Notes: generated from the sequence alone by a model not told the origin. A stretch of DNA of 64,000 nucleotides from Bacteroidota bacterium (GCA_039714775.1 JBDLIQ010000004.1:20-64019); one strand, 5' to 3'. Shown: positions 4,608-46,806, counted from the first letter of the stretch. A program made the numbers and translations.

Positions 4608-4608
4608 A

Positions 4609-16278: not shown

Positions 16279-16341
16279 ATTCTTAACTTTTTTGAGCGCG
16301 CTTAAGTCTGGTAAAAAAATGGGAAAGTCAACTTGTGAATG

Positions 16342-20750: not shown

Positions 20751-20760
20751 TTCAATAGCA

Positions 20761-23904: not shown

Positions 23905-24077
23905 CTCTTTCAGTTTGAGGTTAGAAATCAATTGTAGTTTTAGTAAAACTAAAAAACTAAGATATACCTACCTGCTTAACAGAAGAGTTAACAACAGAAT
24001 TAATGAAAGAATAATATCCACAAATTCTTATTGCTGCAGGTAACTTCGTGCTGGTTGAAAAGATGGCTCTGAAGCGA

Positions 24078-26600: not shown

Positions 26601-26646
26601 ATGAGAATCAAATATAGCCATTAGTTTACCAACATCTTCAAGAGGG

Positions 26647-29600
26647 CTAATATCCTCCAGAATAGATCAATCTGTAACTCCCCGAATAGCCATTTCCGGT
26701 TACTTTAATCAGGTAAACACCATCTTTAAGATGAAGTTGTTGCAAGCTTATTGTAGTTTTTACCGGGTGGGTCTCCCTGTATACCAGGGTGCCGGTTATT
26801 GAGTAAATTGCGATGTCGATCTTTTCAAACTGCCTGTCGCTGATCACCTGCACATTAATCCTGTCACTGGTTGGGTTTGGATACAACCTCACCTTTGTAG
26901 CCGGACTGTTCAGGAGGTGATTGTTTGCAAGAATGGGTTCATCTGCAAATGGGGAACCACCTGTATGCACAGAGTGTCTCCAGTATTCGGACTGACCGGG
27001 GTTGTCAACCGGACTCCGGATAGCTGAAACCATCGAATAACCGTAACCATCAGCCATTTCAGGCCAGGGCATCTGGTCGTTGTAGATGAAATGGATAATT
27101 GAGTTGCCCGCAGAATCCCGCAGCAGTACCTCTTCGCCGTCATTGGAGAAATATCCTTCATAATTGCCGGATGTCTTCATTCCATACCGGTCATAGAATT
27201 TCGTTGTTTTTGAGCTGACCACATAAAACGCTCCGGGATTTAGCACCTCATTTTCGGAAAATTCGTAATAGATTGCCGAATCGAGAACCAGGCCACCCAG
27301 GTGAATTGCCTCATTACCAGTGTTTTTAAACTCAATGAACTCATATTTTTTCCCGTTAATGGTATCAGGACCGATGATACTATCTAAAGGATGGTAATGC
27401 AATTCAGTTACTTTGAGCGATGAGAAATCTTCATCTGATTTGAGGAAACGAACCTGCTTTAAAGGTCCCCACACTCCGTACTCATATGCCCTGGCCTTCA
27501 GTATGGTAGTTGATTTGATCAGCAGTGATTCAGTTCTCTCCTCAAAGATTACAGCGCTATCAGAAACACTCCCCCCGATCTCCCTGGGATCCGTTCCGTC
27601 TGTGGCATAACAGAGAACACCGACAGAAGTTGGATTGCTGATGGATATGGACAGGGGGTCTCTGAAGTAGTAGTTTAAGGTCTGAACGGGGATCCCGTTA
27701 ATACCCACAACAGGAGCATCCATATCAGAGTAAAGCCCGACTGACCTGAGCTGTTCCATCACCACAGCTGTTCGTTCCGGGAAATATGCATGCTCAATTT
27801 TTTGAATCTCTGGCAACCAGTTGTCGTCTCTTGTAAAGGATTCGCTACGTCCCCTGGCGTCGCCCCAACGGGCCGATTCGGCAATGATCGCTGTATCAAT
27901 TTGTGAGACCCTGCTATTAAACCTGTTCAACGCGTTTTCCGGTGACAATGTTCCCCCGGGACTAAGATGCAGAGAGGCCTTGTCGGAAAACCTTTGCATG
28001 TACTCCTGGTTAAATGTGAGTTTATGATGCAACCATTGAGGGTGAAATTCCTTAAAGGCATTGACCACCATATTTCTACCATCTGTTCTGTACGCCAGAC
28101 CTACTCTGCTGTCATTTACTCCAAGTAAGGTGTGCTCTGCATCATGTGAGAAGAACCGATACCCTTCGGACTTATTCTCTCTGTTATAAATGCCATAAAA
28201 ATTATTGGGATGCTTATTGCTCAAAAATTCAGATACAGGAGCATCCATATTTCCGGTATAGAATATTGTAAGCATGTATTCGATCAGGTTATCAATATCA
28301 ACCAGGGTAGTCGCTCCCTGAATGTGATCTCCGTTTTCATCCTTTCCTTCTAGTGCAAAATAGCTTTCGTTGTCTGCAAACCCAAACACCGTTTTGTTAT
28401 GCAGCTCTATCCAGGAGTTGAGGGTTCCGTCAGTGACGATTGCGTCATAGATCAGGGCTTCCACTTTAACCACATCATAATCGCCGGAGTTACCTCCCAG
28501 GTAGTCAGCCGCATAATCTGCCTCGGATCTCTCCTGGGTCTGGTAGAGTCCCCAGTACATGCCATTCAGATAGAGGTGATAATAGCGACTTCTGGTATAG
28601 GGCTGTCCCATGTCCCGTTGCGTATCGCGCGAAAAAACCTCCTTCACCATGGTGTTGCGGCCATCTCCGTTACTCCAGGCATAGTTCTGGGCGGTTCGCA
28701 GATCAATGTTATCAAATCGTTCGACCCCTTCATCTCCAAAGAGAGGGAAATGCAGTTTTGCATTACCATACACCTCCTTAAATAGCAATCGGAAGCTGTG
28801 CTTTGGAAACTCAGGTGCCCGGCTGAATCCACCGCGTATGCGCAGACCGGCATTGACGCTAAAGCCGTCACTTCCATCCGGGTTAACCAGTTCAACGGAA
28901 CACTCCCTTTCCCACGCTACTCCGTCATTGCGGGCATTGACATAGATGCCGGTAACCGGGTTAAAGAGGTTGTCGTTGCCGGTGATGATGGAGATGGAAG
29001 GTATCTCCCGAAATGCATCATCAATAGATGCTGCATAGTCAGGATGGGTGATAATCCTGGAATCAACTTCCAGGTCAATGGTTTGACCGTTGATACTCCC
29101 CACGGGCCAGTCACCGCCCGGGTGATCCTGCTTTTTCACCTCTTCCAGGAAAATAAATGTACGTGATCGGGGTTTTGAAGGCTTATAACCCTCCATCACA
29201 ACTGATGCCCTGAGAACCACAGCCGGTGTTTGGGCACGGCCGGAAGTGCTTTCCGGATCAATATAGATGTTGGCCAAAGAGTCGCTGGTGAATGATGTGA
29301 CCGAATTTTGCGGATTACTTCCATCCAGGGTGTATACAATGTTTGCACCAGGTGCAGGCGTACTGACTGAACAGGTAAATGGCGCATCATAGAATCCCGA
29401 TGGCTGATCAAAGTGAATACCAAGCGTGTCGGGATACCCGGGGAAGATGGGAGTTGCATTGATCTGAACATCGAAATGAAAATCGGAACTGGTCAGTCCA
29501 ATATTGAATCCCTGAACAGCCAGGTAATTGATACCCTCAGAGAGTTCTACTACGGAGGTGTCCACTGTAAACTGTTCAAAGCTGCCCGACTCATGACCAA

Positions 29601-30015
29601 TAGGTGCAAACGAATTATAGAGAGGGGATGAAGGGGCATTTACAGACAGCACCTCTTTACCGTTTATCCACAGAATAAAACCATCGTCATAATTGATGCT
29701 GAAGACCACTTCACTCAATGCCTCAGCATTCATGCACTCAAAAGAGGAGCGAAGGTACATGGTGGAATAGTTGTTTGGCATATCATCCAGCAGGGTACCG
29801 CCATTTCCATCGCCATACCAGAATGGTGCAGCTCCCGTGGACCAGTGACTGTCATCAAATCCGGGGAGCATCCAGATGGCCGGAAGATCGGTTGCAAGGC
29901 TTCCCTTCAGATATTGAAAATCTGATTGAGAAGGGAAGTTCACCTGCGCCTGCAGATGGGTTATTTTAAATAGAAGTAAGAGGAGAATGAAAGTCATTCT
30001 CATTGGGTTGTGCAT
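26647..30015 (-). CDS. CotH-family (atypical kinase fold) protein with lamin-tail domain and T9SS C-terminal domain
   Basis: ATG start and signal peptide. The CotH-like core reads KHSFRLLFKEVYGNAKLHFPLFG...VFSRDTQRDMGQPYTRSRYYHLYLNGMYWGLYQTQER. The LTD-like segment reads LKVTELHYHP...YEFIEFKNTGNEAIHLGGLVL. There are chitobiase-C-like segments (IVYTLDGSNP; CYATDGTDP). The C-terminus is LYPNPTSDRINV...GVYLIKV. Confidence 0.7.
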   Translation of the reverse strand: MHNPMRMTFILLLLLFKITHLQAQVNFPSQSDFQYLKGSLATDLPAIWMLPGFDDSHWSTGAAPFWYGDGNGGTLLDDMPNNYSTMYLRSSFECMNAEALSEVVFSINYDDGFILWINGKEVLSVNAPSSPLYNSFAPIGHESGSFEQFTVDTSVVELSEGINYLAVQGFNIGLTSSDFHFDVQINATPIFPGYPDTLGIHFDQPSGFYDAPFTCSVSTPAPGANIVYTLDGSNPQNSVTSFTSDSLANIYIDPESTSGRAQTPAVVLRASVVMEGYKPSKPRSRTFIFLEEVKKQDHPGGDWPVGSINGQTIDLEVDSRIITHPDYAASIDDAFREIPSISIITGNDNLFNPVTGIYVNARNDGVAWERECSVELVNPDGSDGFSVNAGLRIRGGFSRAPEFPKHSFRLLFKEVYGNAKLHFPLFGDEGVERFDNIDLRTAQNYAWSNGDGRNTMVKEVFSRDTQRDMGQPYTRSRYYHLYLNGMYWGLYQTQERSEADYAADYLGGNSGDYDVVKVEALIYDAIVTDGTLNSWIELHNKTVFGFADNESYFALEGKDENGDHIQGATTLVDIDNLIEYMLTIFYTGNMDAPVSEFLSNKHPNNFYGIYNRENKSEGYRFFSHDAEHTLLGVNDSRVGLAYRTDGRNMVVNAFKEFHPQWLHHKLTFNQEYMQRFSDKASLHLSPGGTLSPENALNRFNSRVSQIDTAIIAESARWGDARGRSESFTRDDNWLPEIQKIEHAYFPERTAVVMEQLRSVGLYSDMDAPVVGINGIPVQTLNYYFRDPLSISISNPTSVGVLCYATDGTDPREIGGSVSDSAVIFEERTESLLIKSTTILKARAYEYGVWGPLKQVRFLKSDEDFSSLKVTELHYHPLDSIIGPDTINGKKYEFIEFKNTGNEAIHLGGLVLDSAIYYEFSENEVLNPGAFYVVSSKTTKFYDRYGMKTSGNYEGYFSNDGEEVLLRDSAGNSIIHFIYNDQMPWPEMADGYGYSMVSAIRSPVDNPGQSEYWRHSVHTGGSPFADEPILANNHLLNSPATKVRLYPNPTSDRINVQVISDRQFEKIDIAIYSITGTLVYRETHPVKTTISLQQLHLKDGVYLIKVTGNGYSGSYRLIYSGGY

Positions 30016-30038
30016 GTTTTCTATATCTTCTAAGATTT

Positions 30039-32636
30039 CTAAAGCAGTTGTAATATGTCATTCCCAATACCGATGTGATAACCCTCAGAGTGATAAATAA
30101 TCTCTCCCTTTGGATTGGCGATGAAGATTTCAGGCAGGACTCCTTTTCTATTGTTGTCCATTGTGATTTTCAGAAGATCCCCGGGGTCTGCATCAGTAGT
30201 CCTGAAAATGGTCCTGTAGGGTAGATCGGGATAATCCTCAACCTTGAAGGTTGCAGGCAGTTCCCTCTTTTGAAGCAGAAAAATGATGGTATTATTCAAT
30301 TTGTCAAAATCCTTTTGAATTCTTTGAATATCATTTAAGACATGTTTCGAAGGTTCTCTCCCCGCTTCAATAACCGCGATAACGATATTCGATTGCTCCC
30401 GCCATGCCCGTGTTCTTTCATTTTTGTCGTTGATGAGCCGGGCCAGCTCCCTGCGACTCAGATGGCCCTGGATCTCAATATGCTCTTTACCCTCAGGGAA
30501 GTCTAATCCAATGATGGTCTCTCCCGAAATCTTAAGGAACTGCATATCAACCAGGATTCTCCCTGATGATAACCTGTTGGAGGTAATCAGTCGGTAGAGA
30601 CCTTCTCTTAACTGAAAATCTTCAATTTTGTCAATATCAACATATTCACCCAGATCAAGTGTCTTGAAACGGCTGTTTTCAAATCTTGCCAGACTAAAAT
30701 GATGATAATATTGTGGCGTAAATGTCAGGTTCTTATTGTTGGCCTGAAACCTGACATCAAATTTTTTGTATTGCTCCGGTTTACCGTCGAAGTGAACATC
30801 AATCCATTGATTATTAGAAAGATACTGAGGAGTGCCTGTTCCCGGTTCTAAACGTCCGGCTATACCTGAAGTCCGACACACTGCCACAAAGAATATGTCG
30901 CGCGACTTGCTGTCAGATACCCTGAGTTTGTGAACTCCAACCGGCGTAATGGGTAGAGCGTAAGACTGTGCATCATCTTTTATTGTAATACTGTCTGTTA
31001 CCCAGGCGATAACATGATGGACATCATTGTTAAACAGCGGATCTAACTCGTCTGATAGATAGCCTCTGTATGCCAGCAGCATTTCGTTGGCAACTCTTGG
31101 ATTCAGGATATATTTTACAAATATCTCAGGGGAGAAATGATCGGCAAACTGTAAAGAGTGACTTAAATGGTCGTTAAGAATAGCTGCTTTCGTATCGCGC
31201 AGGTCTTTTGATGCAATCACATGAAGCATAGATTCTATCCATTCCACATCTTGATTCTCAACTATAAAATCGATTATCTCCTGGTAATTACCACGACTCT
31301 CTTTAATGTATTTCCATAGTTTCTCATCTCCGCTGTTATCAAGGAACGCCTCCCTGGAGATAAATGTAGAGACATAATTGTTTCGAATAGAATCTTCGTC
31401 ATGAAGCCTTCTCCTGTTTTCTGTAATTTGTTCTTCGGTGAGGTGAATGTGATGAAAATCGGATGCTGCAGGCGGCATGATCTCCCAATGGATATCTTCA
31501 AATTCCGGGTTTGATAAGGTGACAGTCACGGTGTCTTTCTCTCCAATCCGAATTTTCCGAAAACCATATTGATCCGCACTGCTTGCCCAGATCAGGAGCT
31601 CTCCATAACCTGTGATCAGCGATGAGACTCCGTTGTGATCACTCCTTTTTGTAGCGAGGGAGTAAAACTCTGCATAGTTGTACAGTTGGTACTCAATTTT
31701 CACATTAGGAACGGGATGGCCATCTGTATCAACAATTTTAATCTGTTGCCTGAATGTTCTGGCATATCTCTCCAGCACATTTGTATCGAAATATTGCGAT
31801 GTGAGAACATTTACCTCTTCCATATCCTGGTATTCTCCATACACCCTTGCATGAACCAGCATCGCTCTGCTTGCCGCCTCATTGAACCATCCCAGGTTCA
31901 GAACAGGCTCAGGCTCACATGCCCCCAAAAACATCCATTCACCATCGATCCATACCTCTACCCAGGCGTGGTTGTCATCGGAATGTGCCCAACGTGGTGA
32001 ATAGACCTGTCGGGCCGGAATGCAGACCGAACGTAAAGCAGCAACGGTAAATGTTGATTCTTCACCACATCTCCCATAGGCTGTCTTCATGGTTGCCAGG
32101 GGAGAAGAGGTTCTGATGTCAGCAGGCCGGTACTCCACTTTTTCATGACACCAGTGATTCACCTCCAAAGCAGCATCATACATCGATAATCCCTCTATAC
32201 GTTCTTTCAGTTCGTTAAAGATGACAACACGTGAACTGTCCAGGTTCTCATTATTAATTCTGTGCGGCAGAATGAAGTGCCTGAAAATGTCATCGGGAAT
32301 ATCCTTTGCCCACCCAATTTCGTTTCGGGCTTTTAGTGTTATTCTGACATGTTGAAGATAAAAGTCCCCTGTATAATCAGCCAGATCACTTAAGGGCATA
32401 TAAGCGTACAGAAACTTTAGAGCATCTGATTCCTGTTCTGTTAAATCCTTATTAAAAACGTCAAATAGATCTTTTGTTCTATACCTGGCAAGCTTTTTTG
32501 TCTCCTGAAATTTTTCATTCACGCTTAACGCATCCTGCGATTCGGTTCTTCTGTTTTGCACGCATGAGGTCACACCAAACAGCGTCACCATTACAAATGG
32601 AAGTATGATTGTTCTTTTCAGTGCGGATAGTTTCAT
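30039..32636 (-). CDS. Transglutaminase-like (papain-fold Cys-His-Asp core) lipoprotein with long C-terminal extension
   Basis: ATG start and lipoprotein signal LFGVTSC. The core reads YGRCGEESTFTVAALRSVCIPARQVYSPRWAHSDDNHAWVEVWIDGEWMFLGACEP, a transglutaminase-like Cys ... His ... arrangement. Confidence 0.75.
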   Translation of the reverse strand: MKLSALKRTIILPFVMVTLFGVTSCVQNRRTESQDALSVNEKFQETKKLARYRTKDLFDVFNKDLTEQESDALKFLYAYMPLSDLADYTGDFYLQHVRITLKARNEIGWAKDIPDDIFRHFILPHRINNENLDSSRVVIFNELKERIEGLSMYDAALEVNHWCHEKVEYRPADIRTSSPLATMKTAYGRCGEESTFTVAALRSVCIPARQVYSPRWAHSDDNHAWVEVWIDGEWMFLGACEPEPVLNLGWFNEAASRAMLVHARVYGEYQDMEEVNVLTSQYFDTNVLERYARTFRQQIKIVDTDGHPVPNVKIEYQLYNYAEFYSLATKRSDHNGVSSLITGYGELLIWASSADQYGFRKIRIGEKDTVTVTLSNPEFEDIHWEIMPPAASDFHHIHLTEEQITENRRRLHDEDSIRNNYVSTFISREAFLDNSGDEKLWKYIKESRGNYQEIIDFIVENQDVEWIESMLHVIASKDLRDTKAAILNDHLSHSLQFADHFSPEIFVKYILNPRVANEMLLAYRGYLSDELDPLFNNDVHHVIAWVTDSITIKDDAQSYALPITPVGVHKLRVSDSKSRDIFFVAVCRTSGIAGRLEPGTGTPQYLSNNQWIDVHFDGKPEQYKKFDVRFQANNKNLTFTPQYYHHFSLARFENSRFKTLDLGEYVDIDKIEDFQLREGLYRLITSNRLSSGRILVDMQFLKISGETIIGLDFPEGKEHIEIQGHLSRRELARLINDKNERTRAWREQSNIVIAVIEAGREPSKHVLNDIQRIQKDFDKLNNTIIFLLQKRELPATFKVEDYPDLPYRTIFRTTDADPGDLLKITMDNNRKGVLPEIFIANPKGEIIYHSEGYHIGIGNDILQLL

Positions 32637-32668
32637 AAGTCCCTGAATTTTTCATCCCCGGAAAGCGG

Positions 32669-35600
32669 TTACTGGTAGATGGCTTTCAGGGTATGTATGG
32701 TTTCACTGGTTTCTATGCGAATGAGATAGAGTCCGGGTTTTGCGCCTGATTCAGCAGGAGTCCAGTTCATACGGTGGTTTCCGGCAGGCAATGTATGGTT
32801 TTTTAATACATCAATGACCTTTCCTGACATTGAGATCACTGAAATATGCACATGATCACTTGCCGATGATCTGTATTCAATGGTTGTCATATCATGAAAA
32901 AGGGTTGGATAGATGCTCGCTGAAGATGTAATTTGCCTGTTTAAGATCCCGTCACCTATACCCACAAACTGACTGTTTACTATACAGGGGGTACCGTTGG
33001 TTGATGAAGCCCTCCAGCTTTCGGGAAGGGTATTGTCAAGATCCGGGTTTATCAACTCAAGGGTAGCCCCGCTCCCGTTGGGCCCGGTGGGCCATGGAGG
33101 CTCACTTTCAAATCTTACAAAATCATGAAGTCCGCCTGATTCATCAAACAGAGCGACGGCATCTCCGTTTCTGCTCAGGCCAAAATCAAAATCGCCAAGA
33201 AGAGGTTGTCGCTCGGGAAAAATCCTTCTGAAATCAGCCCTGCTTCTGCCCATGACCATGTACCCGTTCTGAGGGATCGTGGTACCCGGCTGAATGGTAT
33301 AGTATACGCCGGAGGAGCCATCTGAAAGTCTCCAGGCAGAAAGATCCACTGCAACTTCCGAATTGTTATAGAGCTCAATCCAGTCATCGGTATCTCTTTC
33401 CGGGTCAGCATAGTAGTTGATCTCATTGATCACAACATCCACCTCTGCATCCGGAACCTCCTCAAACAGCGCTGTAAAGGTTCCTGTTGTGTGCATATCA
33501 AAATCTATGGTTTTTGAAACGGATGTTACACTACCCTCCCAGCGTGAAAACCTGTATCCCGGAGCGGGAATGGCTTCAAGCTGAATGGGAACATCCGTAA
33601 AATAGATTCCCTGAAACGGATAGGCTTCTGGAACAATGGAGTTCACCCTGATGCTGCCACCGTCAGGATCTGAAACATAAACAGTGATATCTGAGGTAGT
33701 GGTCAGGTTAAACTGTTCTATGATGAATCCCCTCATATAGTGCGACCGGTTATTGAGGAAATTTTGGATCAGGGCCAGGTGGTTGTTCCAATTGGTCACG
33801 GAACCTCCCCATTTTTCAAAATGGTACGGGGCCTCACTGCTGATCCGGCGTCTGAAATTGTAGACCACAGGAACAATATTTTCTGGCAGGAAGTCGCTGT
33901 TCATGCGGTCTGCCATCTGGTTAATGAAGGAGTTTCGGAATCCGGCATTAACAATCAGGGAGTTAAACAGCTCGGTCGACCATTCCGCGTTAATCCAGGG
34001 ATGTTCAGACTCTATTCCCATGGAGAACTTAAGTGTATTGAATGTATAGGTTCTTTGATTTGGCAGATCATAACCAAAGTCTGTGTCATAGAGAATCCAC
34101 CGAAATAGGGAGCCGGGTGCCTGTGTGTTCCAGAATTTAATATTATGCTGGGGCCAGTCCCAATTATCGAGATAGACCTCAAGCAACCAGTAACGGATGT
34201 AGTTATCCACATCCATCATCCCTTTAACCGTGTTGTAATTATTCTCATATTGAAGGTTATGGGTAGTGGCAAAACTGATCAGTTTATCCCAGGATGTCCG
34301 GCTTCCCGACATCAGTGATGCATTGTCCTGAAATATATTTACATCCTCAGTATGCACGTGATGGTTGGAGGCTACAAAATGCTCGTTCAGCTTCTCCCTT
34401 ATATTCATGATCCCCCAGTACTCCCCGTTCAGGTAGAGAACGGACGGTCGGTAGCCCTGGTGATCTACATTCAATTTCCCGGCCAGGTAGCCTGAGATTG
34501 CATCCCTGAACATGCCATTGGTGTAGTCACCACCATTGTTCCGGAGAATAAAGGTTTCGAATTTTTCAATATTTTTTTCAGGAAACAGGGGATATGAGAA
34601 ACTCCCTTTACCATACGCACTTCTGGCATAGAAGGCGAATGGTTTTAGGGCCAGGCACCTGGTCGAACCACCATAAATTTTTATTCCTGCATTCTGCCCG
34701 ATCAACTGCTGACCATGTGCATCAGATATATCAAGATAAACCGGCTTTTCCCAGTCCTGCCAGAAATTTGCCCCGTAATACGGCCAATCGGGAGCGGCAT
34801 TGGGCCCCATCTCATAGATCCCTGTATGGTAATCAAAAAGATTTGCCGGATCAGTAGCGACCGAAACACGTGTAATATCATGTTTCCGGCCCTTAAAAAA
34901 GGTTCTGGTCGTAACTGTTCCCGGCAGATATCCGGATCTTAGAATTCTTGCACGAATCACCTGGGTGGTGGTAATATCTAACTCACCCGTATATACTTCA
35001 GATCCGGAATCGGGCTCGGAACCATCTGAAGTAAAATAGATGGTGTCATTGGCATCCCGGGTAACCATCTGCAGCGAGGTGGAATCACTCTCCTCACCCG
35101 TAATCAGAAACTCCACGGAATCCATAAAATAGCCCGAAGAGACAGATGTGCTGTTCTCAGAACCGGGTGTGGGCTGGTCAAAATATCCAAATTGAGTCTG
35201 ATCAGAGGGTAGCCTGCCATAGGAACGATCGGGTGGGAGAGAGATCATGGAGATTGAATCAATGATCAAACCCGCTCCATCTGAAAGATAGATCGCCTCG
35301 CCCTCCGAAGCAATTTTAAAATTTGTGTGTGGATAAACATTCATCACAACGATATACGGATTACCCAACGTAAGGTCTTCCCGGATCTGACTGAATCCCA
35401 GCAGGAAAAAGGGTATGGAGGTCATGTCTGAAGAGGTTGCACCTGCATTATGAACCTCGATGGCAAGTACATTCTCACCCTCCTGCAGGAGATCCAGATG
35501 GTTTGAAAGGTAAAAAGAATCAGGGGGATCACCGTTATACATGACCGCTTCATGACCAGTGAGACTGGGTTGATCGAAACCAAATGCAACACCGGAATCT

Positions 35601-36211
35601 CCCATGGAGGCACTCCGCGCGATCTCAGATCCGTTCAGATAGGCAATAAACCCATCATCGTAATCCATAAACAGGGCAGCATGGGTCACCTCGCTCAAAT
35701 CTGAAATATTGAAGGTCTTTTGCATATAGAGGGAGATGGTTTGCCCGATAAGGGTGGAGTCGTCTCCATCGTTATAGCCAATACCACTCTTTCCGACAGA
35801 CCAGTCAGTTGTTGCAGCGGAAGAGGATTTCCAGGAATCATCAATCTCTGCTTCTGGTACCATATACCTCCACTGATCTCCTACATTGATGATGGTATGC
35901 CAGTAGGAGGGGTCGGATTGCAGGCCTCTTCCTGAAGCAAAAGCCACGAAATATCCACCTCCCGGAAGATCAACATGAGGCAGGTTCCACTTGTTTAACT
36001 CCTCTATGTTATCTGATAACCAGTAATTTCCCAGCTCTACATCTTCATCTCCGGGATTATAAATTTCAATCCAGTCCGGATGCTCTCCGAACTGATCCTC
36101 CAGGATGGTAAAATTGTAGGACATCATCTCATTCAGCAGAAGCTGGGAATAGCTGTCCGCAGCTATTAATGAGAGCAGTAAAATGAAAATTATTGGGGTT
36201 CTTCTTTCCAT
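32669..36211 (-). CDS. CotH-family protein with two or more lamin-tail domains and T9SS C-terminal domain
   Basis: The ATG at 36211 directly abuts the upstream TAA (36212-36214). LTD-like segments are LLLNEMMS...HPDWIEIYNPGDEDVELGNYWLSDN and VVINEINYYADPERDTDDWIELYNNSEVAVDLSAWRLSDG. The CotH-like core reads FILRNNGGDYTNGMFRDAISGYLAGKLNVDHQGYRPSVLYLNGEYWGIMNIREK. The C-terminus is IYPTLFHDMTTIEY...GLYLIRI. Confidence 0.7.
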   Translation of the reverse strand: MERRTPIIFILLLSLIAADSYSQLLLNEMMSYNFTILEDQFGEHPDWIEIYNPGDEDVELGNYWLSDNIEELNKWNLPHVDLPGGGYFVAFASGRGLQSDPSYWHTIINVGDQWRYMVPEAEIDDSWKSSSAATTDWSVGKSGIGYNDGDDSTLIGQTISLYMQKTFNISDLSEVTHAALFMDYDDGFIAYLNGSEIARSASMGDSGVAFGFDQPSLTGHEAVMYNGDPPDSFYLSNHLDLLQEGENVLAIEVHNAGATSSDMTSIPFFLLGFSQIREDLTLGNPYIVVMNVYPHTNFKIASEGEAIYLSDGAGLIIDSISMISLPPDRSYGRLPSDQTQFGYFDQPTPGSENSTSVSSGYFMDSVEFLITGEESDSTSLQMVTRDANDTIYFTSDGSEPDSGSEVYTGELDITTTQVIRARILRSGYLPGTVTTRTFFKGRKHDITRVSVATDPANLFDYHTGIYEMGPNAAPDWPYYGANFWQDWEKPVYLDISDAHGQQLIGQNAGIKIYGGSTRCLALKPFAFYARSAYGKGSFSYPLFPEKNIEKFETFILRNNGGDYTNGMFRDAISGYLAGKLNVDHQGYRPSVLYLNGEYWGIMNIREKLNEHFVASNHHVHTEDVNIFQDNASLMSGSRTSWDKLISFATTHNLQYENNYNTVKGMMDVDNYIRYWLLEVYLDNWDWPQHNIKFWNTQAPGSLFRWILYDTDFGYDLPNQRTYTFNTLKFSMGIESEHPWINAEWSTELFNSLIVNAGFRNSFINQMADRMNSDFLPENIVPVVYNFRRRISSEAPYHFEKWGGSVTNWNNHLALIQNFLNNRSHYMRGFIIEQFNLTTTSDITVYVSDPDGGSIRVNSIVPEAYPFQGIYFTDVPIQLEAIPAPGYRFSRWEGSVTSVSKTIDFDMHTTGTFTALFEEVPDAEVDVVINEINYYADPERDTDDWIELYNNSEVAVDLSAWRLSDGSSGVYYTIQPGTTIPQNGYMVMGRSRADFRRIFPERQPLLGDFDFGLSRNGDAVALFDESGGLHDFVRFESEPPWPTGPNGSGATLELINPDLDNTLPESWRASSTNGTPCIVNSQFVGIGDGILNRQITSSASIYPTLFHDMTTIEYRSSASDHVHISVISMSGKVIDVLKNHTLPAGNHRMNWTPAESGAKPGLYLIRIETSETIHTLKAIYQ

Positions 36212-39200
36212 TTACAGAACAACTATCTTTTTGGTGTAGAGATCATTGTCAGCATATATCTTCAGGATGTAGAGACCCGACAGGAGTGAGGGACGGTTCA
36301 CAATAAAACGACCATTGGATTGACAGGCCTCTTCAACTATTGTGTTTCCGCTCATATCAAAAAGAGTGACGCGAGAACCTTCAGTCTGATCACCATTTAT
36401 CAAAACGTTAAAGACACCCCTGCTTGGATTTGGATATACTTTGAAAACAGGATCATCTGTTGGATTGATACCTACTTCCAGGTCCACTGTATTGTACATG
36501 TAACTGGAGGTCACAATGCCCCGGGCATCTTCTGCATAAGCATAATAATCAGCATTTTGGCTCACAACACTGGCAGGCAAAGAGGCCGTATACCTGTTTC
36601 CTGATTCAAGTGCTGCTGTGACCGGGATCCAGTTTCTGCTTTGCCAGTCATCCGCGGGAACACTGTAATAGAGTTTTACACTGGAGACAGATACACCCGC
36701 AGGCATATCCAGATCAATCTGAATAACCCCGGCACCTTCGTGATCACGAATTGCATCTGTGATGGCAACATGACCAAAGGGATTCCCAATCGATTTCAGA
36801 TGGTAGTCAAAGTAGTATGTCATCATCGAAAAACTGGATGGAACCATGGTGTGATTCAGGTTGGGTCCCCATGTGTGATTTTTCATCTCCGGAATTGCTT
36901 CCAGGGTGCCCATTACTGCTTCAGGCCAGAAGTATGTGTCGTTGGAGGCTGCTTCAAGAAAATAGGGCGCCGTGATATGGGGAGCACGCCTGCCGGCATC
37001 CAGATAGGTGGTCCAGGTGATTCTGTCAGTGGCAGACAGTCCCTCTACTATTGTTTTCCAGAAGGAACCTTTTTCGTAATAGCCACAGCCAAAGACTGCA
37101 TAGGCAGCTTTCACCCTCTCCTGAAGCAATCCGGATACCATGGTGGTGGAATAACCACCCCACGAAATCCCGGCAACGCCCATTCTGGAAGAGTCGACAT
37201 TGGGCTGGCTCCTGAGCAGATTGAACGCTTCCAGTGCCGCGACCTCTGCATCAACCAGTGTGCTGTTTCCGGCCCCGATCCCCACATCAAAACGGGGTGA
37301 CTCACCTGTGGGCCGGCTTTTCCATGGGCCGGTGGTATGGGGCGTATTGTCGACCCCGCAAATACCAGGCAGATCGCATGCAATGGCCACGTAACCAAGT
37401 GCAGCAAAATTCTTCACATAACCTGACATGGTCTCAGCATTTCCCCCTCCTCCATGCAGGAACAACATCCCGGGATATTTGCCTGCATCCTGTGGATATG
37501 CCATGATTGCATAGACCGTGTTGAGACTGTTTCTTGAACTGTATGTCAATAGTTTTGTGGTGATGGGGGTTGATCCGTGGACCGAATTGGTGGTGCTGAT
37601 CACCTCGCCTACCGAAGGGATGCTGTTAATGAATGGGACAAACGGATCTGCTGTAATAACCATCTCCACAACCTGCGTTGACGTGCCGGCCATGTTGGTT
37701 GCACTCACATCCACATGGTATGCTCCCACGGTGGTTGGCAGTCCGCTGATTACTCCGGTAACGGTATTGATGGTCAGACCATCAGGCAGGGTGCCTGCTG
37801 CATAGTAATCCGGATCTTTTGTTGCCGTAATGGCATAGGTAAAGGGTGCTCCCAGGGTTCCCATGGCGCTGGTGTCACTGGTAATAACCGGCTCTTCAGA
37901 TACAATTTCATAATAGTTTCCCAGCAACACCTGTTTAATCAGTTTTGGCCCCTCCCACAGCAGATGCAGGCTCGCCTCTCCATCGGTATGAACATACTCT
38001 ACCTTGATGTCATACATTTGATCTGCTGTAAGATCAATGGTTCCGCTAATTTCATCACGCGTATCGGTGCTTTTGTTAAGTACCTGGGTGTTATCTATCC
38101 ACACCCGGGCAACCTGATCACAGTCGGCATAAAAGGTGTAGGTTCCCGTTTTCTTAGGTAATACCTTTCCAAGCCACCGGACAGAGAAACCATCCTTTGG
38201 AACAGCTGCCGAAGCATCGGGAGAACCGGTACCGGGCTCATCTCCCAGGTCGAAATCTATCCGTGGTGTAATGGAACTTTTTAAAGAGCTTGCAAAATCA
38301 CCTGTGAAATACTCCACCTCAAACAGGGGAATGGTATCCAGATCAGGATTCATTTTTTTGGCCTCGGTCACCGACCAGGGATGGCCATCGGGATAGATAA
38401 ATCCATGAAATGGGACCGCCGGCTCATCTGCTTCTTGTGGGCTTTCCCAGTGGAAGCGGCCGTTGTTTCTGCCAATGGTCAGATCGCTGATAATAAATCC
38501 GGTTTGGTTGGCAGTAAAATAATCTACCATTTCAGAAAAATCCTGACCTGTGACAGGACTACCCGCTGTAGCACGATTCAGACATCCTGTATTCAGGTGT
38601 TCGGATCCTCCTCCTGCTCCCAAAGTATCTCCATACATATGGAATGTGTAGAAGTCGGAATATTTTCCGCCAAGAAACCGGCCGCTGGTAGAGGAGACCA
38701 GGGTGTTCGTTCCTGTCTCTTTGATCCATTGGTATGCTTCTGATGCGATTCTTTGCGCCGGGGCCAGGTGTTCCGGTTCGTTGATAGGGATCCAGAAAAG
38801 AACTCTCGGATCGTCTATATGGGCATTGACAACATCCTGAACATAGTTTTTTAACCTCACTCTATGGGCATCATAATCGTTGTCCCTGATGTTGTTTCCC
38901 GGACTTGTATTCATCTGGCTGTTGTGGACTCCGGGCACAGGAGGATCGTAGGGAGCAAGGTGGGGGGGATCAACAACGCCAGCGTCATCAAAAAGAACGG
39001 GGATTACTTGCATTCCGTATTGATCCGCCCTTTGCAGGAGATCCTCAAAGTTGGAAAGGAGTGCACTCTTCTCCTTTTCCCAGAGTAGCCAGTGCAGATT
39101 GACCTGCAGTGTGTTGAATCCATAAAATTTTGCATAGGAGAGTTCTCTTTCCACCACCCCGGGGTCGTACTCCTCCATCATCTGTGTTGCGTTGACACTG

Positions 39201-40333
39201 TTGGAGGTCACAAAAACGGCTCCTTTTACCCCGGACCAGTCCCTAACAACAGGCTCCTGCGGGGTAATGGGATGCACTGTGGTTACCTTCACATTGTCAA
39301 ATACTGCACCGCTCTCAGTGGCTTTCAACCCGATGTAGCCTGACGAATTGCCCAGGTCATACTCTGTAATAGCCGGAGTAACTGTATCATTCACAAAGAC
39401 CCATATATTAGATCCTTTGCAGACGATTTTCATCTGTTGAGGGCTCTCTTTTTCAACATCCAGGGTCATTTCGCTTGCCAGTTCAATACGCCCATGATCT
39501 ATCTTTTGTAACGCTACAAAAGCCCCCTCTGCACCGCTACGCAAAGAGGCGAAATAGCCTGAAAAATCATCTGCCGTTCCGGGAGAGGTTACCCTGAAAA
39601 CAACCCCTGCCTCTGATTCATCGGCAGTCAGGGTGACCTCGCTACTAAACTCAAAATCGGTATAGTCGCCAATGAAAATATTGCTGTTTGCTTCACCATG
39701 AAGGGCTCCGCCTGTTACAGACCATGTGCCTTCCGCCGTCCATCCGTTATAATCGCCGTCATGAAAGTCATCTTTGAAGAGTGTAGTGGCACCGATGGAG
39801 GAGACCATCTGTATATCATCAACCCTGGTGGTTACGCTGCCATTTTTAAAATGGTAGATCCTGAACCAGTCGATTGCATTCAAATCGGGCGTTCCCCCTG
39901 TGATCCTTGCATTGCCTATCTCCAGCTGGATCAGGTTCCACCCGTTCTTCAATCCGCTCAATGACCAGTTATACTCTTTGACATCGGGAGTGTTCCCGCT
40001 TCCAAGCTCCACCTGGTTATTGGCATCAAATCCTGAAACATCGGAGACAAAATACCAGAATTGCAGTATCCTGTTCTCCGGAGAGACAGAAACAGGATCC
40101 ATTCTTTTCCAGAACTCATCCGTTCCGTTGCCTGTGGACTGCAAACTGGCCGTCCCCTCCTTCTTGTCGGTTTGATCCAGGGTTATGGGATTTGCTCCAT
40201 GCCAGCCTTCCAGTATATCACAACGATCCAGTGATTGTGCGCTTAACGTGGGAAACAGGAGTGTTCCTGATATGAGCAGGGTTGTGAATGCGATTCGACG
40301 AAGAACCAACCAATGATCTCTATCTGTTTTCAT
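36212..40333 (-). CDS. Multidomain T9SS cargo: CBM-like, DUF1080/LamG-like, clan GH-A (GH5-like) TIM barrel, PA14, Ig-like, alpha/beta-hydrolase (esterase) and CTD
   Basis: The ORF-track start at 40366 is TTG. An ATG at 40333 gives MKTDRDHWLVLRRIAFTTLLISGTLLFPTLSAQS. Domain cues in order are LFKDDFHDGDYNGWTAEGTWSV (DUF1080-like), FWIPINEPEHL (clan GH-A acid/base NEP motif), GFSVRWLGKVLPKKTGTYTFYADCDQVARVWIDN (PA14), LPDGLTINTVTGVISGLP (Ig-like), LFLHGGGG...GVAGISWGGYS (GxSxG esterase) and VYPNPSRGVFNV...GLYILKI (CTD). Confidence 0.75.
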   Translation of the reverse strand: MKTDRDHWLVLRRIAFTTLLISGTLLFPTLSAQSLDRCDILEGWHGANPITLDQTDKKEGTASLQSTGNGTDEFWKRMDPVSVSPENRILQFWYFVSDVSGFDANNQVELGSGNTPDVKEYNWSLSGLKNGWNLIQLEIGNARITGGTPDLNAIDWFRIYHFKNGSVTTRVDDIQMVSSIGATTLFKDDFHDGDYNGWTAEGTWSVTGGALHGEANSNIFIGDYTDFEFSSEVTLTADESEAGVVFRVTSPGTADDFSGYFASLRSGAEGAFVALQKIDHGRIELASEMTLDVEKESPQQMKIVCKGSNIWVFVNDTVTPAITEYDLGNSSGYIGLKATESGAVFDNVKVTTVHPITPQEPVVRDWSGVKGAVFVTSNSVNATQMMEEYDPGVVERELSYAKFYGFNTLQVNLHWLLWEKEKSALLSNFEDLLQRADQYGMQVIPVLFDDAGVVDPPHLAPYDPPVPGVHNSQMNTSPGNNIRDNDYDAHRVRLKNYVQDVVNAHIDDPRVLFWIPINEPEHLAPAQRIASEAYQWIKETGTNTLVSSTSGRFLGGKYSDFYTFHMYGDTLGAGGGSEHLNTGCLNRATAGSPVTGQDFSEMVDYFTANQTGFIISDLTIGRNNGRFHWESPQEADEPAVPFHGFIYPDGHPWSVTEAKKMNPDLDTIPLFEVEYFTGDFASSLKSSITPRIDFDLGDEPGTGSPDASAAVPKDGFSVRWLGKVLPKKTGTYTFYADCDQVARVWIDNTQVLNKSTDTRDEISGTIDLTADQMYDIKVEYVHTDGEASLHLLWEGPKLIKQVLLGNYYEIVSEEPVITSDTSAMGTLGAPFTYAITATKDPDYYAAGTLPDGLTINTVTGVISGLPTTVGAYHVDVSATNMAGTSTQVVEMVITADPFVPFINSIPSVGEVISTTNSVHGSTPITTKLLTYSSRNSLNTVYAIMAYPQDAGKYPGMLFLHGGGGNAETMSGYVKNFAALGYVAIACDLPGICGVDNTPHTTGPWKSRPTGESPRFDVGIGAGNSTLVDAEVAALEAFNLLRSQPNVDSSRMGVAGISWGGYSTTMVSGLLQERVKAAYAVFGCGYYEKGSFWKTIVEGLSATDRITWTTYLDAGRRAPHITAPYFLEAASNDTYFWPEAVMGTLEAIPEMKNHTWGPNLNHTMVPSSFSMMTYYFDYHLKSIGNPFGHVAITDAIRDHEGAGVIQIDLDMPAGVSVSSVKLYYSVPADDWQSRNWIPVTAALESGNRYTASLPASVVSQNADYYAYAEDARGIVTSSYMYNTVDLEVGINPTDDPVFKVYPNPSRGVFNVLINGDQTEGSRVTLFDMSGNTIVEEACQSNGRFIVNRPSLLSGLYILKIYADNDLYTKKIVVL

Positions 40334-40363
40334 GATGATGATTGAAATATGTTCAATAAACCT

Positions 40364-40371
40364 CAAAAATA
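40364..40371 (-). promoter_or_regulatory. Candidate Bacteroidetes -7 promoter box for the 40333 operon
   Basis: The reverse strand reads TATTTTTG, an exact match to the TAnnTTTG -7 consensus of Bacteroidetes sigma-A promoters. It lies 31 nt upstream of the ATG at 40333 and just downstream of the hairpin at 40399-40436. No clear -33 TTTG was found. Confidence 0.35.
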
Positions 40372-40398: not shown

Positions 40399-40436
40399 AA
40401 ATGAATAAAAAGAGAGTGCCCCGAGAGACACCCTCT
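40399..40436 (-). terminator. Candidate intrinsic terminator after the 1221-aa gene
   Basis: The reverse strand reads AAGAGGGTG-tctctcgggg-CACTCTCTT. This is a 9-bp stem including one G.U pair, followed by TTTATTCATTTATT. It lies 74 nt downstream of the stop at 40510. Confidence 0.45.
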
Positions 40437-40509
40437 TCTAATTGCGTTGATGGGAACGGTTAATCCTAAAACTTGTTGTTCCCGAACGAACATATGTTTA
40501 ACTAAATGA

Positions 40510-44352: not shown

Positions 44353-45567
44353 CTATTGTTCAAATACCTCCTCATGTTTATCGATACAGCCATATGCCTG
44401 AATGATCGCCTCTTTATTTTCGACCGTCAACGGTTTTTCAGCAACATAATTCCTCATCCGGCATCCAAACAGTGAGATGGTACATTTTTCTGCTCCTTTT
44501 ACGGTCATAAAGTCATAAGAAACTCCATGGTTTGTAAGAGCTGCATTATCTCCCGAGAAGGCCTCCACATTGGATAGTGCCGTATGCCCTTTTCCCTCAA
44601 TGACGATGGGATGAATCTCCTCGATGGTCTCTCCTGTATTTGCAATGATGGATCCCTGGGCAATCTGCCAGTTCCGGTTTTTTGTGTTGTTGCCAAGCTT
44701 ATGGATACCGATGGTGACACAATCAAAATTGAAATTTGTAAGCTGACCGTATGACTCACCACCCAGGTAGATACCACCGTATGTCCCAAATGTAAAAACA
44801 TCGATTAATTGTGCGTTATCGGTATGCTCTATGGAATAGGCAAAGCTTTTTTTAGCAATGACTGCATCAATGATTGCTTTGGAGTGACCACCCGTAAATT
44901 CCCTCTGTATGGCAGGATTTACGTGACAATGCAATATCCTGGGAATATCATAACAGCGGTCGATGCGAATGAAGATTCCGCTCAGGGGATAGCCATAGCA
45001 GTGTTCAACGGTCAGGAGTTCACTGATGACGCCTCTGGGAGCAGCAAAGTCAATGGCCAGATACGATCCATAAAAAGTGAGGTTGTTTAATGTGACCCCC
45101 TGGGTATTTCTCTCTTCAGACAGCCTGATCGTTGCCGGATATTCAATGATTTTTGATGGGTCCCTTAGGGCCTGGTCGGAATACCAGAACTGGATTCCTT
45201 TGATCTGGGTCGCTGACTCAACGGTAATGAATACATTTTTTCTGTCCGTAATCTTAAATACACTGCCAACAGGCTGGGGCTTTGTGGGATGGCTGGTTCC
45301 ACGTGGTGTTGCAGCATTGGCACCAATTAATGAAACATTCTTCTTCAGGACTACGCCTCCTGCGATGTGATAGGCAGAATCACCAGGCTCCACATAAAGA
45401 ACCCCTCCTCTGGGCGACATGATATCAATGGCCCTCTGCAGGTTGATCCTGTTGACCTCGGCCGAATTGGAAGGATTAACTCCAAATTCCCGAATACTCT
45501 CTCCTCTGGCCATCCCTGCAAGGAATATGCTGATTACTAAAAAGAAACTTGTTTTTTTTATGCCCAT
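44353..45567 (-). CDS. Secreted right-handed beta-helix protein (pectate-lyase-superfamily-like N-terminus)
   Basis: ATG start and signal peptide. FGVNPSNSAEVNRINLQRAIDIMSPRGGVLYVEPG...VVLKKNVSLIG resembles the Pectate_lyase_3 start seen in GH55/GH28-like beta-helix enzymes. Confidence 0.4.
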   Translation of the reverse strand: MGIKKTSFFLVISIFLAGMARGESIREFGVNPSNSAEVNRINLQRAIDIMSPRGGVLYVEPGDSAYHIAGGVVLKKNVSLIGANAATPRGTSHPTKPQPVGSVFKITDRKNVFITVESATQIKGIQFWYSDQALRDPSKIIEYPATIRLSEERNTQGVTLNNLTFYGSYLAIDFAAPRGVISELLTVEHCYGYPLSGIFIRIDRCYDIPRILHCHVNPAIQREFTGGHSKAIIDAVIAKKSFAYSIEHTDNAQLIDVFTFGTYGGIYLGGESYGQLTNFNFDCVTIGIHKLGNNTKNRNWQIAQGSIIANTGETIEEIHPIVIEGKGHTALSNVEAFSGDNAALTNHGVSYDFMTVKGAEKCTISLFGCRMRNYVAEKPLTVENKEAIIQAYGCIDKHEEVFEQ

Positions 45568-45633
45568 TACCAGCGATTTAGTTTCACAATATTATTATAT
45601 CAGAATAAGCTTCATTTGCATTGTAAGCCGTGA

Positions 45634-46806
45634 CTAATTACTGCACATCTCTTTCAGGTAGTCGTAATGCCATGACTTTGTACCATCTGGTTTCACCAGC
45701 CAAAAACCCCTCATATCTTCATTTAACTTTACAGGAGGTTTTGCATCCGTATTTTTTAACTCATTACAATACAACTGCCAGTAGATGATGTAGGGGCATT
45801 TCTCCTCAAGACCTGTTTCAACAGTATTTTTCATCACAGCTTCGATTTGCTCCGGGGTGTAATGATTTTCCGGAACACCATACTCCCCCAAATAGACATT
45901 GTCATTACCGAAAGCTTCACTGTCGGGCATCATTCTTTTAATAAAATTAATCGCCTGGTTGAGCAATACTGTATTTTCATTCTCAGCTGCTTTCAGACAT
46001 GCATCATAGCATGAATAAGAGACAAGGTCCAGATTTGTATAAGGCAGAACTTTGTTCACCATATTGGGAGCTCCCGACAAGGATTTGACAACCAAATTTA
46101 TTTCTGCAGCATGATATACAAATACATCCTGTGCAGCTACCTCTTCCCGTGCTTTTGTAACGCCCCTCTGACGGGCATTAAGCCACTCTGTCATTCTGGC
46201 AATTGCTTCCGGAGCAGGATCAATATCAGGATTGGTATGCCCGCGAAGGTGCCAGTCTCCTTCGTGATGCTGAAGTATAAAGGTTTTTCCAGTTCCGGCA
46301 TACTTTTCTAGCAGAGCCTTTGTGAATTCATAAAACTCACCCTCTTCTTGTTCAATATTAGCCTCACTTAAATAATCTTTCCAATAGTATGCATTGCTAT
46401 TAACAAATGAAGCAACATTCAAAACAAATGTCTTAAATGGTTTTTCAAATAACTCCGTGTAGTGGGTATTATTCAAGCCATCAAGAAGGGATGTTGCACC
46501 TGTGGGCCAGCTTGAATTCCATGGATACATGATATCAGGAGTTTCTATGCCATTATAGTACCAGATCTTAATCACTTCAGAACCCATCTCAAGCAGTACG
46601 TCCGCACCCTGATTCAGGCAATCTTCATCTCCAAAATAGTACCGGGGTATGACATGCGAAGAACCTATGATTTCAGAGTTCTTTCTCCCAACAGGATCCT
46701 CGATCGGTTCATCCACGGCAGGGGAGGAGCACGCCTGAATTCCGAAAATTATCAGCGTAATATAAGTCAGAAAAAACTTTAACAATACTTTAAGTTTTAT
46801 CTTCAT
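45634..46806 (-). CDS. Lipoprotein, possible clan GH-A-like (beta/alpha)8 glycoside hydrolase
   Basis: ATG start and lipoprotein signal IFGIQACSS. FILQHHEGDWHL and NVYLGEYGVPE are spaced like the acid/base and nucleophile glutamates of TIM-barrel glycosidases. The family is not identified. Confidence 0.35.
   Translation of the reverse strand: MKIKLKVLLKFFLTYITLIIFGIQACSSPAVDEPIEDPVGRKNSEIIGSSHVIPRYYFGDEDCLNQGADVLLEMGSEVIKIWYYNGIETPDIMYPWNSSWPTGATSLLDGLNNTHYTELFEKPFKTFVLNVASFVNSNAYYWKDYLSEANIEQEEGEFYEFTKALLEKYAGTGKTFILQHHEGDWHLRGHTNPDIDPAPEAIARMTEWLNARQRGVTKAREEVAAQDVFVYHAAEINLVVKSLSGAPNMVNKVLPYTNLDLVSYSCYDACLKAAENENTVLLNQAINFIKRMMPDSEAFGNDNVYLGEYGVPENHYTPEQIEAVMKNTVETGLEEKCPYIIYWQLYCNELKNTDAKPPVKLNEDMRGFWLVKPDGTKSWHYDYLKEMCSN

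Follow-up and report, generated by a model that had tools for sequence, protein, structure and literature searches.

This analysis concerns two genes for CotH-family proteins, CotH-1 and CotH-2, on a 64-kb stretch of DNA from a Bacteroidota bacterium (GCA_039714775.1 JBDLIQ010000004.1:20-64019). This whole 64-kb stretch is called the window, and its open reading frames (ORFs) of at least 150 aa lying outside longer ORFs were scanned for families. The two genes lie on either side of a gene for a transglutaminase (TGase)-like lipoprotein and follow gene 1, which encodes a predicted multidomain esterase cargo of the type IX secretion system (T9SS) (Table 1). The four minus-strand ORFs span 36212-40366, 32669-36211, 30039-32636 and 26647-30015 and are separated by spacers of 0, 32 and 23 bp. 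At the junction of gene 1 and CotH-1 the TAA at 36214-36212 abuts the ATG at 36211-36209; this was read directly in the sequence, as were the other junctions. The spacing and the abutting codons are as given in the preliminary description of this DNA, but its limit of four packed genes does not hold, as a Kelch regulator lies 25 bp past CotH-2 and the run consists of five genes.

CotH-1 matches PF08757 at E 4e-38 (132 bits) and has two stretches of lamin-tail domain (LTD). CotH-2 matches PF08757 at E 4e-16 (59.9 bits), and the TGase-like protein matches Transglut_core (PF01841) at E 1e-21 (77.7 bits). The cut-offs are 23.8 bits for PF08757, 23 for PF01841 and TIGR04183, 27 for PF18962 and 23.5 for PF00150, and the domain calls made earlier for both CotH-LTD genes and for the TGase-like lipoprotein are right. 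The two CotH proteins are 23% identical, and CotH-2 is an ancient paralogue of CotH-1.

Both CotH proteins have signal peptides and score above the 23-bit cut-off with TIGR04183 (26.8 bits for CotH-1 and 41.1 bits for CotH-2), while the PF18962 model of the T9SS C-terminal domain (CTD) is below threshold for CotH-1 only (20.5 vs 27 bits). The CTD matches and the signal peptides lend support to the export by T9SS that had been proposed. No Por/Gld/Spr genes for the T9SS machinery lie within the window. Pfam scans of the block proteins gave no match to a dockerin; the T9SS CTD holds the C-terminus of the CotH proteins. A type A CTD should leave these proteins on or near the cell surface.

Table 1. 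Positions of the genes, segments and signals discussed; L-numbers are loci in relatives.
Feature	Position	Strand	Description
Gene 1, 1373-aa T9SS cargo	36212..40333	-	3keto-disac_hyd/LamG-like, GH5-like region, PA14, He_PIG, DLH/AXE1-type esterase, type A CTD
CotH-1, 1180 aa	32669..36211	-	signal peptide, LTD, CBM-like beta-sandwich, CHB_HEX_C, CotH ~440-840, Flg_new_2, LTD, T9SS CTD
CotH-1 catalytic-loop and metal segment	34079..34159	-	D685-WPQH-N690...Y-D709-T-D711 (alignment)
TGase-like lipoprotein, 865 aa	30039..32636	-	TGase core C190/H223, carboxypeptidase-regulatory-like beta-sandwich, helical domain, degenerate second core, thioredoxin-fold C-terminus
CotH-2, 1122 aa	26647..30015	-	signal peptide, CBM-like beta-sandwich, CHB_HEX_C, CotH ~390-730, LTD, T9SS CTD
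CotH-2 catalytic segment	28135..28245	-	D591-APVSEFLSNKHPN-N605...H-D625-A-E627 (alignment)
Terminator-like hairpin	40408..40439	-	14 pairs (5 GC) and T-run; ends upstream gene 40510-44175
Candidate -7 box	40364..40371	-	TATTTTTG, exact TAnnTTTG match ~30 nt upstream of ATG 40333 (sequence reading)
Kelch-repeat transmembrane regulator-like protein, 847 aa	24078..26621	-	C-terminal BTAD/SARP-like domain; first gene of cassette B; 25 bp downstream of CotH-2
u404 and u390	44353..46806	-	u404 with weak beta-helix signal, u390 with no family; 72-83% identical in relatives
GxGYxYP putative glycoside hydrolase and 290-aa CTD protein	15406..18102	-	flank CotH-2 orthologue in L004, L089
SusC-SusD pairs	53880-58921; 18855-23931		accompanied by GH92, GH3, GxGYxYP, GDPD, Kelch-type regulators
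Duplicated regulator-SusC-SusD-DUF3823	53181-63928; 18156-26621		70, 71, 66 and 92% amino-acid identity
Metallophos gene in relatives	L002:8770-9855; L004:1328-2416		directly upstream of TGase-like gene
GH16/GH3/two-CotH operon in relatives	L047:1463-15258; L069:1536-15291; L048:1-15252		also in L025, L061, L075, L034
VTC/DUF4956 sets in relatives	L048:7400-15252; L066:7441-13534; L078:7462-13489; L034:9911-16337; L036:2378-8781; L084:6840-13510; L029:7046-13462		in or beside CotH-1
Tandem CotH-1-family arrays	L058:6393-19923; L081:3347-13594		3-4 full-length genes

Fold and catalytic residues of the CotH domains

An AlphaFold (AF2) model of CotH-1 residues 440-880, made from 36 sequences, has a mean pLDDT of 91.8. 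The best fold matches of this model in the PDB are the structures of the B. cereus CotH kinase, 5jd9/5jda (E 6.6e-16, target TM 0.76, 14% identity), and the next and far weaker matches are CtkA, HipA, PI3K and Fam20. As modelled, the CotH-1 domain has the CotH atypical kinase fold. For CotH-2 the same fold is predicted from its alignment to CotH-1; comparison of the two profiles gives a probability of 100% and an E of 1.5e-79 over 765 columns, from CHB_HEX_C through LTD. phmmer searches of the PDB with full-length CotH-1, CotH-2, the CotH-1 domain and a classic short CotH found no CotH structure, and a profile of 26 CotH-1 sequences missed 5jd9. Of the profiles tried only the mixed A5 profile, which combines five short classic CotH-CTD proteins from Ignavibacteria loci with both window CotH domains, reached 5jd9_A (E 2.3e-7), with the B. 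cereus segment QNFD224GFVHN229YALY...IPWD247YD249 aligned.

Bacillus CotH is a proven protein kinase, and the catalytic positions used here are those of the B. subtilis mutants D228Q and D251A (PMC7821199), carried to the window proteins by spacing. Both pairs being 23 residues apart, B. cereus D224 and D247 correspond to D228 and D251 of B. subtilis. On this basis the catalytic Asp (D224 in B. cereus) aligns with D685 in CotH-1 and D591 in CotH-2, the metal-binding Asp (D247) with D709 and D625, and the second acidic residue (D249) with D711 and E627. The loop Asn, N229 in B. cereus, corresponds to N690 in CotH-1; its counterpart in CotH-2 is ambiguous, N605 being the invariant residue there. 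The motifs are DNWDWPQHN and YDTDFG in CotH-1 and GNMDAP, PNNFY and HDAEH in CotH-2. The profile-profile alignment confirms D685=D591, D709=D625 and D711=E627.

Alignments of 26 sequences per family, with identities down to 37%, were used to assess conservation. D685, N690, D709 and D711 are invariant in the CotH-1 orthologues, and D591, N605, D625 and E627 are invariant in the CotH-2 family. The two paralogues are only 23% identical, yet each family has kept these positions without exception, which suggests that catalysis or the binding of metal or nucleotide has been retained. The preliminary description had regarded loss of the catalytic residues from both paralogues as the sign of a purely structural or binding role; the equivalents of D228 and D251 are kept in both CotH families.

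The same residues bear on the possibility that the CotH proteins are non-catalytic binders, that is, adhesins or scaffolds like the CotH invasins of Mucorales, in which the kinase pocket has been kept as a ligand site. Fungal CotH proteins act as host-binding ligands. The window proteins have many modules of the binding type (two LTDs, a CBM-like sandwich, Ig-like domains), and the tandem arrays of three or four members in two relatives (L058, L081) are typical of surface-protein families. However, strict invariance of the D-x-D/E metal site, the loop Asn and the catalytic Asp in both families is difficult to account for unless there is catalysis or binding of metal or nucleotide, and we consider this explanation quite unlikely.

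Both CotH genes are members of large, old families of T9SS cargo that are annotated as 'CotH kinase family protein' but are uncharacterised. The full 1180-aa architecture of CotH-1 recurs at 35-72% identity with ~100% coverage, and a genome scan with confirmed relatives places it in at least 597 species genomes. Among the matches listed, the relatives of CotH-1 span Bacteroidota, Ignavibacteriota, Calditrichota, Cloacimonadota, KSB1, Marinimicrobia, Balneolales and others. At E<=1e-3 CotH-2 matches 24,160 cluster representatives, and at the stricter E<=1e-30 it matches 4,521; its core (residues ~200-1025) often sits inside proteins of 2000-3900 aa. The tandem arrays of full-length CotH-1-family genes are found in a Cloacimonadales and a Bacteroidales metagenome-assembled genome. 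A literature search on CotH with type IX secretion or with polysaccharide-utilisation loci (PULs) found nothing relevant.

The TGase-like lipoprotein and the gene neighbourhoods

The TGase-like protein belongs to a family with more than 8000 matches, mostly in Bacteroidales, and its lipoprotein signal ends in LFGVTSC. An AlphaFold model (pLDDT 83) has the TGase core, the sandwich and helical domains, more beta-sandwiches and a thioredoxin-fold C-terminus; the sandwich domain is 38% identical to a B. fragilis fragment, 3e8v. C190 and H223 are invariant, but where 3isr has its catalytic Asp the alignment places an invariant glycine, G238, in a GACEP motif. E241, D220 and D221 are also invariant and any of them could substitute for the canonical Asp. 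A further TGase-like core, degenerate and lacking the His (VAVCRTSGIAGRL), appears to be present at residues ~560-620, and the thioredoxin-fold domain at ~740-865 has no CxxC. The Transglut_core match and the invariant Cys and His are common to this protein and to the TGase-like putative cysteine proteases 3isr (C. hutchinsonii) and 3e8v (B. fragilis). The window protein differs from them in the Gly at the canonical Asp position, the long multidomain body, the degenerate second core and the thioredoxin-like end.

A link to peptide:N-glycanase (PNGase) had also been drawn for this gene. The likeness is marginal, with phmmer giving an E of 0.056 to 2f4m, and no PNGase is among the top 50 Foldseek matches of the model in the PDB; the PNGase reading was rejected as unsupported by either search. 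The surface-export signal of Bacteroidota lipoproteins has been published and allows the residues after the lipid Cys to be read. They are VQNRR, with no acidic residue, in the TGase-like protein, whereas the SusD, DUF3823 and GH92 lipoproteins of the window are acidic there. The TGase-like protein probably faces the periplasm and, as a periplasmic protein, would be physically apart from the secreted CotH proteins rather than co-located with them.

The preliminary description had presented CotH, TGase-like and CotH genes as a triad. Two surveys bear on its conservation. The first covered 80 CotH-1 loci with flanks of up to 10 kb, searched by tblastn with all window proteins, and the second covered 10 kb around a TGase homologue at 39-43% identity in 80 metagenomic loci. 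No CotH-1 locus has a TGase-like neighbour (0/80), no TGase locus has a full-length CotH neighbour (0/80), and the triad is ruled out as a conserved module. The three closest TGase relatives (58-67% identity) differ in their surroundings. The one at 67% (L004) lies in the order u404, Metallophos, TGase, GxGYxYP, CotH-2 (64%), CTD290, aldose epimerase and MFS, so CotH-2 is two genes off. The one at 65% (L002) lies among beta-helix, u390, u404, GDPD, Metallophos, TGase, SusC, SusD and GxGYxYP genes with no CotH, and the one at 58% (L005) lies in a housekeeping context with no CotH nearby. The TGase-like gene is juxtaposed to CotH genes only in this lineage. The Metallophos gene (calcineurin-like phosphoesterase) of L002 and L004 occupies the slot that CotH-1 has in the window, where no gene of this kind was observed.

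It had been suggested that the three proteins cooperate, for example in glycoprotein processing that joins a PNGase-like step to phosphorylation. The tight packing in the window, the position of the TGase gene two genes from CotH-2 in L004 and the invariant C190 and H223 are consistent with such a module. The zero counts in both surveys, the two close relatives without a nearby CotH, the invariant Gly in place of the canonical Asp, the marginal PNGase likeness and the probable lack of the acidic export motif all stand against it, and cooperation of the three seems extremely unlikely.

What close relatives share is a set of genes and not an order: CotH-1, CotH-2, u390, u404, GxGYxYP and a small CTD protein. 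One locus (L089) has u390 (80%), a glycoside hydrolase (GH) of ~630 aa, u404 (81%), CotH-1 (66%), an aldose epimerase, an MFS transporter, GxGYxYP (77%), CotH-2 (66%) and CTD290-like proteins. Another (L087) has a GH, u404 (83%) and CotH-1 (73%), adjoined by GH92 genes and a GH20. u404 is directly upstream of the CotH-1 orthologue in both. GH92 neighbours the CotH-1 orthologue in L028, L052 and L087, and GH3 adjoins CotH-1 in 10 of the 80 loci. An operon in Ignavibacteria and Calditrichia consists of genes for a 1041-aa unknown protein, a PorV-like outer-membrane protein, GH16-malectin-CTD, GH3, CotH-1 and a short CotH-CTD protein. As this operon has two CotH genes, a CotH pair in a glycan-degrading operon, here with an enzyme set of the beta-glucan type, recurs in another phylum.

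In a second recurring context CotH-1 is linked to genes that include one with a polyphosphate-polymerase domain. A tight or overlapping set of genes for a 355-aa protein, a protein with a VTC polyphosphate-polymerase domain (PF09359, E 3e-45) and DUF4956 lies in or beside CotH-1 in 6-7 of the 80 loci; the hosts are Ignavibacteriota, Calditrichota, Melioribacteraceae and Reichenbachiella. In L029 the slot of the 355-aa protein is filled by a HlyD_D23-type protein. VTC or DUF4956 occurs in none of the 80 TGase control loci. A CotH/polyphosphate-polymerase/DUF4956 cassette has been reported at Gram-positive pel loci (PMC7112168), and the authors of a study on S. intermedius state that they did not find the CotH/VTC/DUF4956 linkage elsewhere (PMC12345266). 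In the literature the linkage has been described only beside Gram-positive pel operons; here it is seen in lineages of the Fibrobacterota-Chlorobiota-Bacteroidota (FCB) superphylum. The pel cassette and 6-7 of the 80 FCB CotH-1 loci have in common a secreted CotH-family protein and the VTC/DUF4956 linkage.

This linkage raises the possibility that the CotH proteins modify the cell's own exopolysaccharide (EPS) or surface polymer for biofilm formation or aggregation and not a foraged glycan, a role that is suspected for the pel cassette. Deletion of the CotH-like SIR_1594 and of the transmembrane-protein gene SIR_1592 lowered Pel and aggregation in S. intermedius (PMC12345266), which, with the VTC-DUF4956-CotH linkage in FCB loci, speaks for such a role. 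The window differs from the pel cassette in lacking VTC/DUF4956 and in a context that is catabolic (GH, SusC/SusD) and not one of EPS biosynthesis. The neighbours in the window and in relatives are SusC/SusD, GH92, GH3, a sugar transporter and an epimerase, and no glycosyltransferase or EPS export genes were found nearby. A role in the cell's own polymer is therefore a distant prospect.

The block in its polysaccharide-utilisation locus

Upstream of gene 1 there is a terminator-like hairpin that begins just past the stop of the gene at 40510-44175, followed by a candidate -7 box; TAnnTTTG is the established consensus of Bacteroidetes promoters. Both had been noted before and both are present. 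The -7 box match spans 40371-40364, so a TTG start at 40366 falls inside the predicted promoter; the length of 1373 aa given earlier for gene 1 is reproduced by the ATG at 40333 and not by the listed TTG. No convincing internal terminator was found across the packed run. Sequences resembling promoters or terminators are no commoner there than in shuffled sequence. The four-gene block is a probable operon, and co-transcription of the packed run is plausible.

Gene 1 had been called a GH-A/PA14/esterase cargo. The PA14, esterase and CTD parts of this description stand, but GH-A corresponds only to a sub-threshold GH5 match (PF00150, E 0.0025, 17.8 vs 23.5 bits). In the numbering from the TTG start, a 3keto-disac_hyd/LamG-like domain is at residues 200-361 and a weak GH5-like TIM-barrel region at ~365-700. 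The C-terminus matches Por_Secre_tail and scores 51.3 bits with TIGR04183, and a signal peptide can be read.

The block sits in a ~55-kb run of minus-strand genes that is rich in T9SS cargo, flanked by the end of unit A on one side and by cassette B on the other. Unit A consists of a Kelch regulator, GH92, SusC, SusD, DUF3823, GDPD-LamG-CTD, a 1310-aa beta-helix CTD protein, u390, u404 and a 1221-aa fn3-CTD protein, and it is followed by the terminator. Cassette B consists of a Kelch regulator, SusC, SusD and DUF3823, followed by GxGYxYP, the 290-aa CTD protein, GH3-PA14, mannitol dehydrogenase and GntR. The regulator-SusC-SusD-DUF3823 set is duplicated between the two, and unit A carries the extra GH92 between regulator and SusC. 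From its gene content the surrounding locus is a SusC/SusD polysaccharide-utilisation supercluster. The secreted phosphodiesterase placed earlier at 50828-53173 is confirmed as GDPD-LamG-CTD.

Several other proteins of the locus are of note. The putative regulators at 24078-26621 and 61364-63928, both ~850 aa, carry a LamG-like region and Kelch repeats besides an N-terminal anchor, together with a transmembrane helix and, on the cytoplasmic side, a BTAD/SARP-like domain; they match no NCBIfam model and their Kelch matches are sub-threshold. They appear to be an unusual type of PUL sensor that is neither a hybrid two-component system, SusR nor an extracytoplasmic function (ECF)/anti-sigma pair. 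No other proteins of the locus are as well conserved in relatives as the uncharacterised u390 and u404. u390 has no Pfam match even at E 10, and searches of the PDB with u404 and GxGYxYP gave nothing informative beyond 3sgg. The 290-aa CTD protein (15406-16278) resembles the 1310-aa beta-helix protein (46810-50742), with 48% identity to its first 185 residues and 42% to its CTD, and it looks like that protein minus the catalytic beta-helix core. The flank at 712-10417 encodes a GH78 rhamnosidase and a sulfatase as well as a 966-aa protein without a family and two small CTD proteins, one of which is a fusion with Amidohydro_2. At least 10 CTD proteins are encoded in the window as a whole, an unusual density of T9SS cargo.

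Possible functions of the secreted CotH proteins

Two exported CotH paralogues around a TGase-like gene in a glycan-utilisation locus had been put forward as an unexplained combination, but for secreted CotH/LTD proteins together with glycan-degrading machinery there is a precedent. C. thermocellum cellulosomes carry CotH (CseP/Cthe_0044) and LTD-LTD-Fn3-CotH (Cthe_0239) (PMC6083626), and cellulosomal CotH is also found in Ruminococcus and anaerobic fungi (PMC6083626, PMC12484212). The cellulosomal and window proteins share a secreted CotH with LTD on a glycan-degrading apparatus. The window proteins differ in that they would be anchored by a T9SS type A CTD and not by a dockerin, belong to a Gram-negative FCB host, add CHB_HEX_C and CBM-like modules and are encoded within a SusC/SusD-type locus.

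The reading that we favour, while giving it a little less than an even chance, is that CotH-1 and CotH-2 are active surface phosphotransferases tied to glycan foraging and are the T9SS counterpart of the cellulosomal LTD-CotH proteins. It is suggested by the intact fold and catalytic residues, by accessory modules (CBM-like, CHB_HEX_C, LTD) of the kind found in carbohydrate enzymes, by neighbours that are repeatedly glycan-catabolic across phyla and by the dockerin-attached LTD and CotH of Firmicutes cellulosomes. The accessory modules and the type A CTD would hold the CotH proteins at the foraged polymer, where the most likely acceptor of the phosphate would be a hydroxyl group, either on the glycan itself or on a component bound to it; both this activity and its target are our inference. 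The phosphoryl donor in other lineages may come from the adjacent VTC polyphosphate-polymerase/DUF4956/HlyD-like export set, which the window does not have.

The kinase superfamily includes glycan kinases, Fam20B and POMK; to our knowledge, sugar-kinase activity has been shown for no CotH. Like the CotH proteins as predicted here, Fam20B, Fam20C and POMK act outside the cytosol, some of them on sugars, and they are distant fold matches of the model (5yh2, 4kqa and 5wrr at E ~1e-2). They are very remote from it, with query-normalised TM-scores of ~0.27-0.29, and they use ATP that is imported into the ER/Golgi.

A number of observations weigh against a surface phosphotransferase of foraged glycans. 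ATP is scarce outside the cell. The equivalent of the loop Asn is ambiguous in CotH-2, owing to an insertion that makes its catalytic loop longer than that of CotH-1. SusC/SusD adjoin CotH-1 orthologues in only 2 of the 80 loci and most neighbourhoods are variable, so the glycan link of CotH-1 is a tendency and not a rule. tblastn with VTC, DUF4956 and c12 gave no match in the window, and the family scans of the ORFs showed no VTC or DUF4956 gene there. The Bacillus CotH is a protein Ser/Thr kinase (PMC7821199), and cellulosomal CotH has been discussed as structural or regulatory (PMC12484212).

In another explanation, the secreted CotH proteins are protein Ser/Thr kinases that act on co-secreted T9SS cargo or surface proteins and so regulate or assemble an enzyme coat. 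The window proteins are of the PF08757 family and share the atypical kinase fold and the catalytic and metal Asp residues with the spore-coat CotH of Bacillus, whose protein kinase activity is proven (PMC7821199), and cellulosomal CotH has been proposed to act as a regulatory kinase (PMC12484212). They differ from Bacillus CotH in that their domains are ~14% identical to it and lie inside secreted proteins of 1100-1200 aa with LTD, CBM-like and T9SS CTD parts. The host is no spore-former, the window encodes no Ser/Lys/Arg-rich substrate protein like CotB or CotG, and the location is predicted to be extracellular and not the mother-cell cytoplasm. The accessory modules are typical of carbohydrate-active enzymes, and the problem of extracellular ATP applies equally to a protein kinase. 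This explanation is unlikely but still has to be reckoned with.

Returning to phosphotransfer to a glycan, the genes for VTC proteins that are linked to CotH-1 in other lineages suggest polyphosphate as a donor. In its full form the proposal would be that T9SS CotH-LTD proteins are extracellular glycan or polymer kinases fed by exported polyphosphate from the VTC/DUF4956/HlyD-like set, with which they share an operon in several FCB lineages; as a whole this is clearly improbable. If it were true, foraging bacteria would be adding phosphate to polysaccharide extracellularly, for example as a tag or a means of capture, a chemistry that is not in the current PUL paradigm.

The safest statement about the block is that two ancient T9SS CotH-LTD genes, a multidomain esterase/PA14 cargo gene and a common TGase-like lipoprotein gene are arranged here in a way specific to this lineage. 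The CotH genes of the window are additions to known but functionally unexplained families, and the locus is ordinary in kind. With the trio removed as a misleading lead, attention moves to the CotH pair and its partners u390, u404 and GxGYxYP, and to VTC/DUF4956 elsewhere. Secreted CotH folds are among the commonest unexplained parts of glycan-degrading machinery, from bacterial and fungal cellulosomes to FCB-wide T9SS cargo. What is the role of an extracellular kinase fold in foraging, and what is its source of phosphate? This locus, in which both paralogues keep the catalytic residues, is a reasonable place to ask.

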